A stretch of DNA of 4,211 nucleotides from a virus (IMGVR_UViG_2684622618_000024), one strand, 5' to 3'; shown: positions 1 to 4,211, counted from the first letter of the stretch. The notes: generated by a model not told the origin, from the letters alone. Translations and numbers: made by a program.

Positions 1-1119
1 TCAAATAACCAACTTAACCCATTCCTGACCTCGAGTATCGTTATAGCGATCGGTGGTTGCCTGGACTTTATGTCCTAGTAATGTTTTTGTATCGATACCC
101 TGTGCACGGTACAGCCGTTCTGATAGAGAGCGTTGTTCATGAAATGTTGGCGGAGTTTTTCCTGCTGGTGGAATTACCCCAGCCAGATCCCGTGCTTTGG
201 CAAAGTAGTCGCTCAGGTTGTCTTTACTCATCGGCTTCGGTTGTTTCTGGTGCCGACTATGGATTAGATATGGACTTAATATTCTGTCTCGGCACCCATC
301 AATAACTTCTTTTAACGTTATCCCAATGGCATCACAGCGTAGTGTAAGCGGTAACGCCAGACGCATTCCGGTTTTTCCCTGGGTGATATGCAAGTGTTCG
401 TTCCACACATCTGAAAAACGCATGTGGCAAATGTCATCACGGCGCTGACCAGTAACAATCGCAAGAAGCATTGCGTTACGGATAAAGTGTTTTTCAGGCG
501 TTGCATTGTAAATTTTTTGCCAGTCTTCCATGGTGAGCCTGGCTCTGGTTACTTTAGGGATCGGTTTACGGGTAGCCTCCGGAGGATTCCATCCAGGAGG
601 AACTTCCCCTGCATGCTGTGCTTCTTTATAAATATCAACCCATAATCCACGATTTACTCTCGCTGTACTGACCATGTCTTTATCCAGCCACTCATCCAGT
701 ATTAATGCAAAGTCTCTTACTTCCAGTTCTTTCAATGGGTGGTTTCCCAGACGGGAAACCAGGTATGCAGCCATTCGAGTTTTTTCTTTGTGAGTTGTAG
801 CTGCAATATCTCCATTTTTCAGTCGCGTGTCCTGTATTTTCAGATATCGATCAACCCATGCCTTTAATCTGATACCCCGACGTTTTGTTGCTGACGGACT
901 TTCATCAATTTTGCGCATGAAATATTCAGCTTCTGCTGCAGCTATTCGCTGATTGGCTGTGGAAGCGATTTTTTCTGCCTTACCTTTGTCTGTTCCGAGT
1001 CCGTGAAATTTTCCAGTCACAGGATTTTTATACTGGTAGTAAACTCTGCCAGTTCTGCGATCAAACTTTTCGTAAAGACCGGCTACGTCAGTGCTGTTTT
1101 TTCGTGGCCTCGGTGACAT
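1..1119 (-). CDS. int: Tyrosine site-specific integrase, lambda Int family
   Basis: 372-aa ORF, ATG at 1119-1117, TGA stop at 3-1. Catalytic-core motifs line up with lambda Int: TGQRRDD (Arg), HITQGKTG (Lys), HEQRSLSERLY (His-x-x-Arg), LGHK (His), TTDRYNDTRG (Tyr nucleophile). N-terminal arm-binding-like region also present. Start overlaps the 3' end of xis, as in lambda. Family call is from recalled similarity, not a search. Confidence 0.94.
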   Translation of the reverse strand: MSPRPRKNSTDVAGLYEKFDRRTGRVYYQYKNPVTGKFHGLGTDKGKAEKIASTANQRIAAAEAEYFMRKIDESPSATKRRGIRLKAWVDRYLKIQDTRLKNGDIAATTHKEKTRMAAYLVSRLGNHPLKELEVRDFALILDEWLDKDMVSTARVNRGLWVDIYKEAQHAGEVPPGWNPPEATRKPIPKVTRARLTMEDWQKIYNATPEKHFIRNAMLLAIVTGQRRDDICHMRFSDVWNEHLHITQGKTGMRLALPLTLRCDAIGITLKEVIDGCRDRILSPYLIHSRHQKQPKPMSKDNLSDYFAKARDLAGVIPPAGKTPPTFHEQRSLSERLYRAQGIDTKTLLGHKVQATTDRYNDTRGQEWVKLVI

Positions 1120-1357
1120 GAGTTAAAATCTCCTTCAGTGCATCATCATCGCCAGTATGAATTTCCGGCGCAATTCCCGTTTCACCAGGCCCAACAAATA
1201 CTGCTCGGCGATCTATCAGCCAACGCCCACGAATTTTTTGTGGTCTTGGAACGATGTATCCTAGTTTTCCGTATTTCACCAGGGTAGTGTTTGTTATTGG
1301 GAGACTGAACCGTTTTGGTTTCCACTCGTCGAGCGTTATCAGGTACTGTTCGCTCAT
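1088..1357 (-). CDS. xis: Excisionase, lambda Xis-like
   Basis: ATG at 1357-1355 preceded by GGAG about 7 nt upstream; TGA stop at 1090-1088. Protein MSEQYLITLDEW...PRPQKIRGRWLIDRRAVF follows the lambda Xis pattern (YLTLQEW ... P-x-K-x-GR-x-L). The ORF track's 1366 start is a GTG three codons upstream. Overlaps int by 32 nt. Confidence 0.8.
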   Translation of the reverse strand: MSEQYLITLDEWKPKRFSLPITNTTLVKYGKLGYIVPRPQKIRGRWLIDRRAVFVGPGETGIAPEIHTGDDDALKEILTHVTEATKKQH

Positions 1358-1375
1358 GGCTATCACTCCGGAACG

Positions 1376-1407
1376 CGCCAGTTGCAGAATATCAACGACA
1401 ACTGGCG
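1376..1407. repeat. Perfect 9-bp inverted repeat CGCCAGTTG / CAACTGGCG with 14-nt spacer, just upstream of xis
   Basis: Read directly: 1376-1384 CGCCAGTTG and 1399-1407 CAACTGGCG. No flanking U-run on either strand, so not a classic intrinsic terminator; more likely a protein-binding site or RNA stem. Confidence 0.5.
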
Positions 1408-1418
1408 ACGGTTGAACA

Positions 1419-1682
1419 TTAAAAATCAGCCTGACTCGGGATCAGTTTTTGCCAGATAACTGAAACGTATTTTGCCTGGTAACGGGCGTCATCAAGTNNN
1501 NNNNNNNNNNNNNNNNNNNNNNNNNNNNNNNNNNNNNNNNNNNNNNNNNNNNNNNNNNNNNNNNNNNNNNNNNNNNNNNNATCGGTCATAATGGCAGATT
1601 GCGCTTCGCGTGATTGCTTAAGCCACCATTTAATGGTGTCCCTCGCCGTGTGCTTTCGTGTTGTGTGCCTGCTTTTTACCAC
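1419..1682 (-). CDS. Possible small basic protein, interrupted by an N-run; doubtful
   Basis: 87-codon ORF with a GTG start, spanning the 1498-1580 N-run so frame continuity cannot be verified. Sits upstream of xis in the same orientation, where lambdoid phages often carry small early-left genes. N-terminus MVKSRHTTRKHTARDTIKWW is basic; no recognisable family. Confidence 0.25.
   Translation of the reverse strand: MVKSRHTTRKHTARDTIKWWLKQSREAQSAIMTDXXXXXXXXXXXXXXXXXXXXXXXXXXXXLDDARYQAKYVSVIWQKLIPSQADF
1498..1580. other. Run of 83 N (assembly gap or masked sequence)
   Basis: Read directly. True length and content unknown. Confidence 0.99.
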
Positions 1683-1706
1683 GTCAGGCGAGGTGGTCCC
1701 CGTTAT

Positions 1707-1719
1707 TCCCCAACAACAA
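1707..1719 (+). repeat. Direct repeat copy 1, TCCCCAACAACAA
   Basis: Exact 13-mer repeated at 1740-1752, period 33 bp, in the region upstream of the 1767-2282 gene. Overlaps a small inverted repeat AACAAG-GAT-CTTGTT (1715-1729) that contains a GATC. Confidence 0.6.
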
Positions 1720-1729
1720 GGATCTTGTT

Positions 1730-1742
1730 AATCTGGATATCC
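1730..1742. repeat. Left arm of 13-bp perfect inverted repeat AATCTGGATATCC flanking the 1767-2282 gene
   Basis: 1730-1742 AATCTGGATATCC is the exact reverse complement of 2297-2309 GGATATCCAGATT. The core GGATATCC is itself palindromic. Confidence 0.6.
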
Positions 1743-1752
1743 CCAACAACAA
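1740..1752 (+). repeat. Direct repeat copy 2, TCCCCAACAACAA
   Basis: Exact copy of 1707-1719; overlaps the right end of the 13-bp inverted repeat at 1730-1742 and lies 15 bp upstream of the GTG at 1767. Confidence 0.6.
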
Positions 1753-1766
1753 TAAGAGTATTGAAT

Positions 1767-2282
1767 GTGATCGCTGAATTAACGGCAGCAATGACGGCTA
1801 TTCGTGAAACCGCCCAGATTGCAAAACTAATGAACGAGGCAAAAACTCAAGCTGAAGTAAATGCGGCTATTGGTGAACTGAACTCAAAGCTTGCATCTAT
1901 TCAGCGCGAATGCGTGTCTCTCGTTGAGCTGGTGGGCACTTATCAAGAAATAAATGCTTCTCTCAAAGCTAAAATTGCAGAATTTGAAAACTTTGAGGCT
2001 CAGACGGAAGGTTATATCCTTAGCCAACTTGAGTCGGGAACTTTTGTGTACTCGAAGGAGGTAACCGTGAACGGCGGCAGCATAATCATGCATCTTTGTC
2101 CAAAATGTTTTGGACAAAAGATAGTATCGATACTTCAGCCATTCCCGGTTAGAGAATATGAATTTTTTCATAAAAGCAGGTGCCTGTACTGTGAAAATCA
2201 GTTTCTTATGAATAAAAATCCGGATTACGTATCACCTCCATCTATTGAAGAGTTGGCCAGAAAACTGAACGGCAATCTGTAG
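1767..2282 (+). CDS. Uncharacterised protein: N-terminal coiled-coil-like region plus C-terminal paired-CxxC (zinc-ribbon-like) motif
   Basis: Longest ORF in this interval; TAG stop at 2280-2282. Likely start is GTG 1767 (AAGAG 8 nt upstream) or ATG 1791 (MTAIRETAQ...); the TTG-initiated extension back to 1614 is probably untranslated. N-terminal ~90 aa is helical and heptad-like (AKLMNEAKTQAEVNAAIGELNSKLASIQ...KAKIAEFENFEAQ). C-terminus has CPKC-x24-CLYC. No TM segment evident. By eye the 3' half is clearly more AT-rich than neighbouring genes. Opposite strand to int/xis and the PL-like operon. I do not recognise the family. Confidence 0.7.
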   Translation: MIAELTAAMTAIRETAQIAKLMNEAKTQAEVNAAIGELNSKLASIQRECVSLVELVGTYQEINASLKAKIAEFENFEAQTEGYILSQLESGTFVYSKEVTVNGGSIIMHLCPKCFGQKIVSILQPFPVREYEFFHKSRCLYCENQFLMNKNPDYVSPPSIEELARKLNGNL

Positions 2283-2296
2283 ATTTTTACTGTTAT

Positions 2297-2309
2297 GGAT
2301 ATCCAGATT
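2297..2309. repeat. Right arm of 13-bp perfect inverted repeat (GGATATCCAGATT)
   Basis: Exact reverse complement of 1730-1742; starts 15 bp after the stop codon of the 1767-2282 gene. Confidence 0.6.
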
Positions 2310-2396
2310 GTTAAAGAGCATGCCGGATGCTTGCTTGTGTCCGGCGCGTGTGCACCACTCTCCCCCCGTGGAGGATTCCTTAATTACCAGATTTCA

Positions 2397-2627
2397 TTAG
2401 TCAGAGTTTCTTGCTAACCAGCGACGCGCGCCAGATTCGGTTTTAAACGTTTTGCTTTTGGTATACGTCATCGCGGTGAACGTGCCGTCCTGGTTGGGAA
2501 ACACGCCGCACACCAGAGATTCGTTGTTGCCAAGATCAAGAGTATCCATGCTGACCTCATATCCCCTTAACGCCGGGGTAGCGGAACAAAAACCTGCTGC
2601 ATAGTTAAAGTTGAACCCTGCCGTCAT
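2397..2627 (-). CDS. Hypothetical 76-aa protein, first ORF downstream of the PL-like promoter
   Basis: ATG at 2627-2625 with GAGG/AAGAA purine-rich stretch upstream; TAA stop at 2399-2397. Sequence MTAGFNFNYAAGF...ESGARRWLARNSD is not arginine-rich at the N-terminus, so not an N-type antiterminator. Resembles the small uncharacterised genes left of racR in Rac-type prophages, but I cannot name the family confidently. Confidence 0.62.
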   Translation of the reverse strand: MTAGFNFNYAAGFCSATPALRGYEVSMDTLDLGNNESLVCGVFPNQDGTFTAMTYTKSKTFKTESGARRWLARNSD

Positions 2628-2679
2628 GTTCTTACGCCTCGGGCTGGCTACTTAATCCCTGACCACTGCCGGGTAACTC

Positions 2680-2769
2680 TAGGTATTGCCCTGTATTGTG
2701 TGGGACGGGATGGGTTGGTATGGGAAAACTATAGGAAATGCCTAATTGCTTGTCAATAGGCTACGCCTA
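2680..2769. promoter_or_regulatory. OL-like operator array: TAGGC-N3-GCCTA palindromes
   Basis: 2757-2769 TAGGCTACGCCTA (perfect arms); 2732-2744 TAGGAAATGCCTA (one arm mismatch); 2680-2692 TAGGTATTGCCCT (degenerate). Centre-to-centre spacing 25 and 52 bp, in phase. Same motif as the array right of racR. Confidence 0.5.
2728..2756 (-). promoter_or_regulatory. PL-like sigma70 promoter directing leftward transcription
   Basis: On the minus strand: -35 TTGACA (plus 2756-2751), 17-bp spacer, -10 TATAGT (plus 2733-2728). Operator-like palindromes overlap the spacer/-10 and abut the -35. Predicted leader of about 95 nt to the ATG at 2627. Confidence 0.55.
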
Positions 2770-2828
2770 ATGATTTGGGTGCGACCTAATAGGTGATGGT
2801 TTGTGGGAGAGGTAGTAGGAGTTAACTA

Positions 2829-2850
2829 ACGGGAACTAGGAATTTCCCGT
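2829..2850. other. Hairpin-capable inverted repeat ACGGGAA / TTCCCGT just 3' of racR
   Basis: 2829-2835 ACGGGAA and 2844-2850 TTCCCGT, 8-nt loop. Lies 15-36 nt downstream of the racR stop on the minus strand. No clear U-tract, so a terminator role is uncertain. Confidence 0.3.
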
Positions 2851-2864
2851 CGGACCATATAAGT

Positions 2865-3341
2865 TTAAGTTCCTGTCTTGGTGATGTTCTGGCTTTTCCG
2901 TTTTGATTCTTGATTTTTCAGATAGTTAGCTACCTTCATTTCCATTGCGGCAATGTAGGCACGAACGTCATGATCAACCCAACTAGGCTCCGTAGCATTT
3001 CCAGATAAGAGGAAAGCCACAATTGCTCTTTTTTCATCAGAGGCGGCTTGATAAAGGCTGTTTATGTCTAAAAGTTCACTTTTTGTATCTGAAGTGGATG
3101 GGGTTGGTATGGGGTATTCGTTAAGCCCCCAATGCTCTGGACCAACCACATCAGAAAAGAAACGCCATAGTTCTGGAAGTTTGTCTTTACTTATCGAACC
3201 TTTCTTAATCCAGTCATGGATTGATGGTGGTTGGACTTTGAAATGACGTGCGATTTCCGCCTTTGATTTGACGGCTCCTGATGCAATTTTTTTGTTAATG
3301 GCCTGCTCTATCGCTCGGCCTAAGTCTTTACCACTAAGCAT
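2865..3341 (-). CDS. racR: RacR-like prophage repressor (HTH, cI functional analogue)
   Basis: 158-aa ORF, ATG at 3341-3339 with AGGAGA about 10 nt upstream. HTH segment AEIARHFKVQPPSIHDWIKKG. Length, sequence as I recall it, and position divergent from ydaS/ydaT match RacR of E. coli Rac-type prophages. Too short to carry a LexA/cI-type S24 autocleavage domain. Confidence 0.85.
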   Translation of the reverse strand: MLSGKDLGRAIEQAINKKIASGAVKSKAEIARHFKVQPPSIHDWIKKGSISKDKLPELWRFFSDVVGPEHWGLNEYPIPTPSTSDTKSELLDINSLYQAASDEKRAIVAFLLSGNATEPSWVDHDVRAYIAAMEMKVANYLKNQESKRKSQNITKTGT

Positions 3342-3370
3342 TGCTTAATAGTCTCCTATGCGCATCGCAT

Positions 3371-3434
3371 TAGGCAATGCCTACTCTCGAAGTGTTAGGC
3401 ATAGCCTATTGACAATTGCATTAGGCTAAGCCTA
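3371..3434. promoter_or_regulatory. OR-like operator array: three TAGGC-N3-GCCTA palindromes between racR and ydaS
   Basis: 3371-3383 TAGGCAATGCCTA, 3396-3408 TAGGCATAGCCTA, 3422-3434 TAGGCTAAGCCTA; all have perfect 5-bp arms. Centres 25 and 26 bp apart, comparable to the three-site lambda OR layout. The third site overlaps the spacer and -10 of the PR-like promoter. Confidence 0.62.
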
Positions 3435-3438
3435 ATAT
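3409..3438 (+). promoter_or_regulatory. PR-like sigma70 promoter for ydaS/ydaT
   Basis: -35 TTGACA (3409-3414), 18-bp spacer, -10 TAATAT (3433-3438); GGAG at 3454-3457; ATG at 3466. Confidence 0.6.
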
Positions 3439-3465
3439 TATTGTGTGTTTTTTGGAGTTCATTCG

Positions 3466-3789
3466 ATGAAAAAAGATAACTATTCATTCAAACGAGCTTG
3501 TGCTGTTGTCGGTGGGCAATCAGCAATGGCTAGGCTTTTAGGTGTATCTCCTCCAAGCGTAAATCAATGGATCAAAGGTGTACGTCAGTTGCCTGCTGAG
3601 AGATGTCCTGCGATTGAACGAGCAACAAAAGGTGGTGTCCTGTGTGAAGAACTTCGTCCTGATGTTGATTGGACATACTTACGACGCTCGTCATGTTATT
3701 CGCAGAATATGTCGATGAAGCAACCAAATGACGAAAACGATCATACCCGAAGCATCAAGAGGCAAATGATTCATGAAAATCAAACATGA
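3466..3789 (+). CDS. ydaS: Cro/YdaS-family HTH regulator
   Basis: ATG at 3466 with GGAG 8 nt upstream (the ORF-track 3445 start is a GTG further up); TGA stop at 3787-3789. MKKDNYSFKRACAVVGGQSAMARLLGVSPPSVNQWIKG is a Cro-like HTH that closely matches E. coli Rac YdaS as I recall it. Its recognition segment PPSVNQWIKG is near-identical to RacR's PPSIHDWIKKG. Confidence 0.85.
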   Translation: MKKDNYSFKRACAVVGGQSAMARLLGVSPPSVNQWIKGVRQLPAERCPAIERATKGGVLCEELRPDVDWTYLRRSSCYSQNMSMKQPNDENDHTRSIKRQMIHENQT

Positions 3790-4060
3790 GCACATCCGCA
3801 TGGCGATGAATGCCTGGGCATATCCTGATGGTGAGAAAGTTCCTGCAGCTGAAATAGCCCGGACTTATTTCGAACTGGGGATGACGTTCCCGGAACTGTA
3901 CGACGACAGCCATCCGGAAGCCCTGGCTCGTAATACNNNNNNNNNNNNNNNNNNNNNNNNNNNNNNNNNNNNNNNNNNNNNNNNNNNNNNNNNNNTTGAC
4001 CAACAATATTCATGCCGGATTTCTTCCGGATGTTCGAGGGTAAAGTTCGGTATCAGATGA
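3773..4060 (+). CDS. ydaT: YdaT-like protein (CII functional analogue in Rac-type prophages); 3' part and length uncertain because of the N-run
   Basis: ATG at 3773 overlaps the ydaS stop by 17 nt. N-terminus MKIKHEHI... matches the YdaT N-terminus as I recall it. Sequence is reliable only to 3936. After the gap the frame is unknown: one frame stops at 4058-4060, another at 4041-4043. Recalled YdaT is about 140 aa, so the gap probably under-represents the real length. Confidence 0.6.
   Translation: MKIKHEHIRMAMNAWAYPDGEKVPAAEIARTYFELGMTFPELYDDSHPEALARNXXXXXXXXXXXXXXXXXXXXXDQQYSCRISSGCSRVKFGIR
3937..3995. other. Run of 59 N (assembly gap or masked sequence) inside the ydaT-like gene
   Basis: Read directly. 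Confidence 0.99.
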
Positions 4061-4067
4061 GGTGAGT

Positions 4068-4211
4068 ATGGCTAATGCCTGGCTCAGATTGTGGCATGAC
4101 ATGCCAAATGATCCCAAATGGCGAACCATTGCCAGGGTCTCAGGACAGCCAATCGCAACAGTGATGGCGGTGTATATCCACCTTCTGGTGAGTGCGTCAC
4201 GAAATGTCACG
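4068..4211 (+). CDS. 5' fragment of a rightward gene (48 codons, runs off the window); possibly a YdaU-like replication-region protein
   Basis: ATG at 4068 with GAGG at 4059-4062; open to the window end. Translation MANAWLRLWHDMPNDPKWRTIARVSGQPIATVMAVYIHLLVSASRNVT. Position after ydaT matches the replication-gene slot in Rac-type prophages; family assignment is tentative. Confidence 0.5.
   Translation, partial: MANAWLRLWHDMPNDPKWRTIARVSGQPIATVMAVYIHLLVSASRNVT

Follow-up and report, generated by a model that had tools for sequence, protein, structure and literature searches.

We found that the window analysed here, the whole 4,211-nucleotide stretch of viral DNA IMGVR_UViG_2684622618_000024 (positions 1 to 4,211, one strand), comes from Sp6 and carries the integration, early-left and immunity genes of its left end; Sp6 is a defective lambda-like prophage that occupies the potB/potC junction in Escherichia coli O157:H7. 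The interval between its excisionase gene (xis) and its repressor gene (racR) is short, and a comparison with a related prophage places a loss of 2,876 bp at a single junction inside it. Beside this junction stands ECs_1504, a plus-strand gene carried as 'hypothetical', which by sequence, predicted fold and context belongs to the Rip1 family and is a candidate single-protein anti-phage defence.

In a megablast search of complete E. coli genomes, all unmasked bases of the window matched O157:H7 strain Sakai (NC_002695.2, 1541767-1546350) with 100% identity, and many other O157:H7 chromosomes were likewise 100% identical to it. The Sakai annotation names the enclosing feature (NC_002695.2, 1541611-1590033) 'prophage Sp6; lambda-like phage'. 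Hence, the window belongs to Sp6 both by sequence identity and by its chromosomal position at the potB/potC junction.

The matching Sakai stretch is 4,584 bp long vs 4,211 bp in the window, which contains two runs of N. The three unmasked segments mapped exactly onto Sakai, and we found that the 83 N at 1498-1580 replace 257 bp and the 59 N at 3937-3995 replace 258 bp; both runs are compressive masks, not unsized gaps, and hide no genes. Since the N-runs differ in length from the sequence they replace, window distances measured across them are too short. Counted on the unmasked genome, 1,681 bp separate the start codon of xis from the stop codon of racR (Sakai locus extract 4358-6038), so the initial annotation, which gave about 1.5 kb, was right that the interval is short and wrong in the figure. 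K-12 Rac has about 6.3 kb here and the nearest relatives have 4.4-4.5 kb; in lambda, about 8 kb separates xis from cI. The genes on which that annotation rested (xis, a gap-broken small open reading frame (ORF), the plus-strand gene, a gene of 76 amino acids (aa) and racR) all lie where it had placed them. The features are listed here in window coordinates:

1-1119, minus strand: int (ECs_1501), 372 aa, complete; Pfam Arm-DNA-bind_1 (E 3.8e-21) and Phage_integrase (E 3.6e-18), integrase in the Sakai annotation.
1088-1357, minus strand: xis (ECs_1502), 89 aa, start codon at 1357; Pfam Exc (E 7e-5) and phrog_629 excisionase (E 4.6e-26).
1419-1642, minus strand: ECs_1503, 3' remnant of an exonuclease gene, annotated with 114 aa and the ATG at 1589 as its start; it can be aligned with the intact gene up to 1642, and an N-run splits it (the gap-broken small ORF is at 1419-1589/1682).
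1498-1580: N-run within the coding sequence of the exonuclease remnant (83 N for 257 bp).
1642/1643: deletion junction, at which 2,876 bp of the collinear O91 RM7190 prophage is absent.
1730-1742, plus strand: left arm of the 13-bp inverted repeat AATCTGGATATCC.
1767-2282, plus strand: rip1-like gene (ECs_1504), 171 aa, GTG start; sequence and fold match to Rip1 (PDB 9oox).
2297-2309, minus strand: right arm of the 13-bp inverted repeat AATCTGGATATCC.
2397-2627, minus strand: DUF1391 gene (ECs_1505, YdaF/YdfA family), annotated as 76 aa, first gene of the leftward operon; Pfam DUF1391.
2728-2769, minus strand: putative leftward promoter PL and two operator-like palindromes (promoter scan, repeat family).
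2865-3341, minus strand: racR-type repressor gene (ECs_1506), 158 aa; NCBIfam RacR equivalog.
3370-3438, plus strand: three operator-like palindromes and a putative PR.
3466-3789, plus strand: ydaS-like gene for a Cro-type regulator (ECs_1507); Pfam YdaS_toxin (E 3.8e-30) and P22_Cro (E 1e-8).
3773-3999, plus strand: ydaT-like (CII-like) gene (ECs_1508), 141 aa in the genome, with an N-run in place of 258 bp; Pfam YdaT_toxin and phrog_163 CII-like activator.
4068-4211, plus strand: 5' end of the replication initiation gene ECs_1509, cut by the window end; Pfam DnaT and phrog_1408 replication initiation protein.

The junction was mapped against the prophage of O91 strain RM7190 (NZ_CP015244.1), to which Sp6 aligns in two abutting BLAST alignments. 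In the coordinates of the extracted loci, Sakai 2801-4816 corresponds to RM7190 161-2176 with 94.3% identity, and Sakai 4817-5893 corresponds to RM7190 5053-6129 with 94.7% identity. Exactly 2,876 bp is missing from Sp6 (RM7190 2177-5052): 2,005 bp from the 5' end of the exonuclease gene, ydfD (DUF1482), dicB and a spacer of 405 bp. The junction puts the last 398 bp of the exonuclease gene next to sequence that starts 124 bp before the rip1-like gene. Since the Sp6-RM7190 comparison revealed no microhomology at 1642/1643, we infer a deletion by illegitimate recombination. The deleted 405-bp spacer contains no convincing ORF. Neither the window nor the undeleted relative matched any Rfam family at the gathering score, and DicF was not detected in the spacer.

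Undeleted relatives have the full set of genes. With the same int and xis at potB/potC, the prophage of strain 005008 carries an intact exonuclease gene of 2,442 bp (813 aa) followed by ydfD and dicB, and that of RM7190 carries one of 2,403 bp followed by the same two genes. The prophage of strain E17, which sits at the ompW attachment (att) site, has a 97% identical racR immunity region together with the full layout, and its xis-racR interval is 4.4 kb. The ancestral leftward operon would have run from PL through the DUF1391 gene, past the rip1-like gene on the opposite strand, to dicB, ydfD, an exonuclease gene of about 800 aa, xis and int. A single illegitimate-recombination event would have taken five-sixths of the exonuclease gene from its 5' end along with ydfD, dicB and the spacer, and with them Sp6 would have lost the DicB/YdfD host-killing functions.

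The gene fragment left by this event matches only positions 77-177 of the 177 in the Pfam Rv2179c-like 3'-5' exonuclease domain and only positions 710-823 of the 823 in phrog_2082, a phage exonuclease family. Hence, ECs_1503 is the C-terminal stub of a larger gene of about 800-813 aa. A complete DEDD (Rv2179c-like) domain has the Exo I, Exo II and Exo III acidic motifs, and ECs_1503 retains only the last two; Exo I (DLET, near aa 634-637 in the intact protein) is encoded upstream of the junction and is absent from the remnant, which judging by its motifs is most probably inactive. In the intact protein, the N-terminal 590 aa or so are 59% identical to K-12 RecE, a DEDD-type 3'-5' exonuclease domain at the C-terminus replaces the 5'-3' nuclease domain of RecE, and no recT gene is adjacent (strain 005008). 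The 'exonuclease VIII' of this lineage is a chimera with a RecE-like N-terminus and a DEDD C-terminus, as seen on comparing the strain 005008 locus (9062-11503) with K-12 recE. The whole-element annotation of Sp6 lists no recombination genes elsewhere, and the prophage would have no recombination function of its own.

Of 5,426 complete E. coli genomes, 267 contain a 160-mer that spans the junction. All of these that are named by serotype are O157:H7, and the matches sampled for serotype were O157:H7 or unserotyped isolates. In several thousand further genomes, only the exonuclease half of the 160-mer finds a match, and homology ends within 1-2 bases of the junction. The junction is confined to one lineage. 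As a separate observation, O157:H7 strain 2149 (NZ_CP017436.1) matches only the right half of the 160-mer (positions 79-160), which suggests a further rearrangement or deletion that removed the exonuclease-remnant side of Sp6.

The product of the plus-strand gene beside the junction, ECs_1504, had no significant match in Pfam, NCBIfam or PADLOC (2023) and fell into an unknown-function family in PHROGs; a literature search on ECs_1504 and hkaP by name returned nothing relevant. Against the PDB, phmmer matched it to 'ring interacting pore 1 (Rip1)', entry 9oox, with E 3.6e-7, and a profile built from 46 homologues matched the same entry with E 1e-23 (profile positions 6-152, chain positions 16-160 of 164). 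Four cysteines (C111, C114, C139 and C142) are invariant in the homologues. The AlphaFold2 model (predicted local distance difference test score 91.2) has helices at 2-23 and 28-79, then a beta-rich C-terminal domain that contains the four cysteines. With this model, Foldseek returned 9oox (two chains) as the only significant entry; chain 9oox_M, 'Escherichia phage HK446 Rip1 in complex with T6 small terminase', was found with E 6.3e-7, a probability of 1.0 and a template modelling score of 0.72 normalised by target. ECs_1504 is also 30% identical to gp30 of JBD30, a protein of 164 aa whose gene stands between those for the small and large terminase and runs on the opposite strand. In Sp6, the gene stands alone on the strand opposite to its neighbours; no transmembrane segment is predicted for its product, and the helices are moderately amphipathic.

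Rip1 of Escherichia phage HK446 (Patel et al. 2026, Nature 651:1060, as summarised in the review PMC13434031) is a single-protein prophage defence that is not toxic alone. Oligomeric small terminase or portal rings trigger it to form a 12-mer pore, which leads to premature cell lysis, and its relatives are reported to be widespread in proteobacterial prophages (PMC13434031). By analogy, the rip1-like protein of Sp6 would probably protect the lysogen by forming a pore on meeting the ring-shaped packaging proteins of an incoming phage.

The rip1-like ORF is bracketed by AATCTGGATATCC, a perfect 13-bp inverted repeat with a spacing of 567 bp. The window has two matches to this repeat vs 0.01 expected by chance, and the pair is kept in every other close-homologue locus examined, from four other genomes; it may mark the end of a cassette or be the site of a regulator. 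Just upstream of the start codon, we also noted a direct repeat, CCCCAACAACAA, at 1708-1719 and 1741-1752 (33 bp apart); the region of this repeat contains no consensus sigma-70 promoter.

In the undeleted O91 RM7190 prophage, dicB and the DUF1391 gene flank a copy of the rip1-like gene with 98% identity. Likewise, the prophage of strain 2013C-4282 (at ompW) has a copy of equal length in this slot, and its exonuclease gene is intact. Since undeleted relatives already have the gene in this position, its arrival was no part of the deletion, which qualifies the proposal in the initial annotation of a remodelled element that gained a cargo gene. A 661-bp segment with the rip1-like gene (Sakai locus 4833-5493) is also found, with 93.6% identity, in DLP12-type prophages, and the same module occurs in them and in phage PhiR49_1 beside a different repressor. 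Hence, the rip1-like gene behaves as a transferable moron.

Beyond the window, Sp6 extends to 48.4 kb, and a 12-bp core, CCTT[T/C]TTATTCA, was found at both annotated ends with a degenerate pattern that allowed one mismatch. An exact 12-mer search for att repeats found none. The left copy, attL, was expected to the left of int and is located there, 145-156 bp left of window base 1. A local-alignment att candidate was rejected as an unrelated weak match. Its genes for replication, Q, lysis, terminase and portal/head are retained, as are most tail genes; J, the host-specificity gene, is missing, and an IS2 is inserted. In the right arm (locus 37597-48250), gene I is cut to 186 bp and J is absent, and the gene I/J region is occupied instead by espX7 and espN, then IS2, an nleB2-2 pseudogene, espO1-1 and espK. 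Four of these, espX7, espN, espO1-1 and espK, are type III secretion effector genes. An 'accessory island', which the initial annotation had considered, does not describe a 48.4-kb prophage that has these phage genes, excises and is transferable.

These features agree with the published status of Sp6. Asadulghani et al. 2009 (PMC2669165) scored its recombination, portal, head and minor tail functions as disrupted and host specificity as absent, found an ExoVIII-type system intact only in Sp10, and described the Sp6 repressor as being without a peptidase domain. In the same study, Sp6 excised spontaneously and mitomycin C failed to induce it; K-12 received a marked derivative at low frequency, which integrated at the same locus, and no particles were seen from K-12 Sp6 lysogens. 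Hence, the initial annotation was correct in proposing a deleted, probably cryptic prophage: the deletion is mapped, ECs_1503 is truncated and Sp6 is published as defective.

Other explanations of the short interval fare poorly. If the N-runs or a mis-assembly hid kilobases of recombination and kil genes, the interval would be an artefact, and there are indeed two N-runs, one of them inside the interval, whose N counts do not equal the lengths they replace. Against this, the masked stretches amount to only 257 and 258 bp, too little for the several kilobases of missing genes that the initial annotation had allowed for. Many O157:H7 genomes that were finished independently have the same unmasked sequence, and 267 complete genomes contain the junction 160-mer without a break. 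Since the same junction occurs in all of these, the short interval is not an assembly artefact, and we give this explanation a negligible probability. Gain and loss could also have been one event, in which the arrival of the plus-strand cassette displaced the exonuclease-dicB segment, and both the transferability of the 661-bp segment, with its 93.6% identical copies in unrelated DLP12-type prophages that have a different repressor, and the conserved 13-bp inverted repeat around the gene speak for such a module replacement. However, RM7190, with its 98% copy, and 2013C-4282 hold the gene between dicB and the DUF1391 gene next to an intact exonuclease gene, Sp6 and the O91 prophage run collinear from 124 bp before the gene to the PL region, the DUF1391 gene included, and a simple deletion suffices; replacement is therefore very unlikely.

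A natively compact, fully functional and inducible phage with no loss of function would agree with the spontaneous excision of Sp6 and with the transfer of its marked derivative to K-12, where it lysogenised (PMC2669165). However, the exonuclease ORF is a C-terminal fragment that starts in mid-domain, J is absent, gene I is truncated and IS2 is inserted, and K-12 Sp6 lysogens gave no particles, with several morphogenesis functions defective (PMC2669165). An intact inducible phage with its recombination genes elsewhere, as the initial annotation had also allowed for, is contradicted by the same absence of J, by the lack of recombination genes in the rest of Sp6 and by its published scoring as defective (PMC2669165). 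We regard the compact-phage explanation as extremely improbable.

Several points weigh against our preferred reading, which we nonetheless hold to be very probable, that of a deletion in Sp6 which left a putative Rip1-type defence gene in place. That sequence was deleted from Sp6, rather than inserted in its relatives, is read from the truncated reading frame. RM7190, the relative used for mapping, shares only 94% identity with Sp6 and differs from it in the immunity region, which makes it a cousin and not a parent. A consensus scan found no promoter or terminator for the rip1-like gene, and its expression and activity in O157 are putative. Selection for the loss of dicB and ydfD is speculation.

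The immunity region was found to be of the Rac type. The racR product passes the NCBIfam RacR equivalog model with 246.8 bits vs a cut-off of 200 and is 92% identical to K-12 RacR. Five TTAGGC-N2-GCCTA palindromes (family D1) common to both sides surround the gene, two on the left (2731-2744 and 2756-2769) and three on the right (3370-3383, 3395-3408 and 3421-3434). A leftward TTGACA-17-TATAGT promoter from 2756 to 2728, which agrees with the consensus at 11 of 12 positions, overlaps the left palindromes, and a rightward TTGACA-18-TAATAT promoter (3409-3438) overlaps the right palindromes. The arrangement points to a lambda-like OL/PL - repressor - OR/PR design in which the palindromes would act as operators and the two hexamer pairs as promoters.

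The rest of the window likewise has a lambdoid architecture: the repressor lies between divergent promoters with repeated operators, the leftward operon ends in xis and int, and cro-like and cII-like genes followed by replication genes lie to the right. What the leftward operon lacks is the lambdoid recombination module and kil-type genes, since only the 114-aa remnant is present and dicB and ydfD are absent. The deletion has left about 1.4 kb between PL and xis. With xis and int intact and the racR module present, the integration and immunity modules were kept, as had been proposed. A RacR-controlled PL would still read through into xis and int, which fits the reported spontaneous excision.

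The first gene of this operon, ECs_1505, is probably annotated too long. Its DUF1391 domain covers residues 28-75 (Pfam E 6.6e-30), from Met27 onward its product is 84% identical to K-12 YdaF, and the DUF1391 gene is annotated as 153 bp in relatives. The Met27 ATG is at window position 2549 and has a GAGG 6 nucleotides upstream. Since the domain, the YdaF alignment and the 153-bp annotations all begin there, the real start is probably this ATG, with a product of 50 aa and a 26-aa N-terminal extension that would be an annotation artefact.

That Sp6 is a defective prophage has been known since the Sakai genome, and its disrupted ExoVIII-type module was tabulated by Asadulghani et al. 2009 (PMC2669165). 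The short interval is thus real but ordinary, and it matters little as a discovery. What we add is a base-level map of the lesion (2,876 bp, junction at 1642/1643, no microhomology), the loss of dicB and ydfD in the same deletion, and the placement of the 'hypothetical' ECs_1504 in the newly described Rip1 family, an assignment that may help phage-resistance or phage-therapy work on O157:H7. We suggest tentatively, as a possibility that we hold with less than even confidence, that ECs_1504 acts as an abortive-infection pore of the Rip1 type, has a trigger specificity of its own and has become fixed in O157:H7, and that the deletion was a step in domestication. If so, domestication removed the host-toxic dicB and ydfD together with the recombination gene, and spared the immunity module, the mobility given by xis and int, and the defence gene along with the 124 bp that precede it.

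Among known prophages, the O91 RM7190 prophage is like Sp6 in its att site and is collinear with it, at about 94% identity, in int, xis, the exonuclease 3' end, the rip1-like gene, the DUF1391 gene and the PL region. Unlike Sp6, it has the full exonuclease gene, ydfD and dicB, and a different immunity region without racR. The prophages of strains 005008, E17 and 2013C-4282 are similar to this undeleted sibling.

K-12 Rac shares with Sp6 the RacR/YdaS/YdaT immunity module and the YdaF-type DUF1391 gene. Both also have a plus-strand gene beside the DUF1391 gene, which is sieB in Rac and the rip1-like gene in Sp6. In contrast, Rac is integrated at ttcA and Sp6 at potB/potC, and the recE-recT module of Rac is absent from Sp6; the 6.3 kb between xisR and racR in Rac hold rcbA, ralR, recT, recE, racC, ydaE, kilR, kilS, sieB, ydaF and ydaG. 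Since its att site differs and the exonuclease of its lineage has a different nuclease domain and no recT partner, Sp6 has a Rac-type immunity but is not Rac.

In its setting, ECs_1504 has parallels in other phages. The homologue of rip1 in Pseudomonas phages lies between the terminase genes, whereas the gene of Sp6 occupies the early-left sieB slot. A distant homologue, HkaP of phage HK620 (29% identity, E 1e-12), is annotated as a 'putative superinfection exclusion protein'. No relationship in sequence to SieB was seen, although no search aimed at one was made, and the product of ECs_1504 has no predicted membrane segment. Nevertheless, hkaP and the sieB genes of lambda, P22 and Rac share its slot and orientation, on the plus strand within the leftward operon and near the immunity region.

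The closest parallel to ECs_1504 itself is Rip1 of HK446. The two proteins are only about 28-30% identical, and the function of ECs_1504 is a predicted one. Both, however, are single small proteins (164 aa for Rip1 vs 171 aa) with long N-terminal helices and a beta-rich C-terminal domain with four cysteines, and both are encoded by prophages on the strand opposite to the neighbouring genes.

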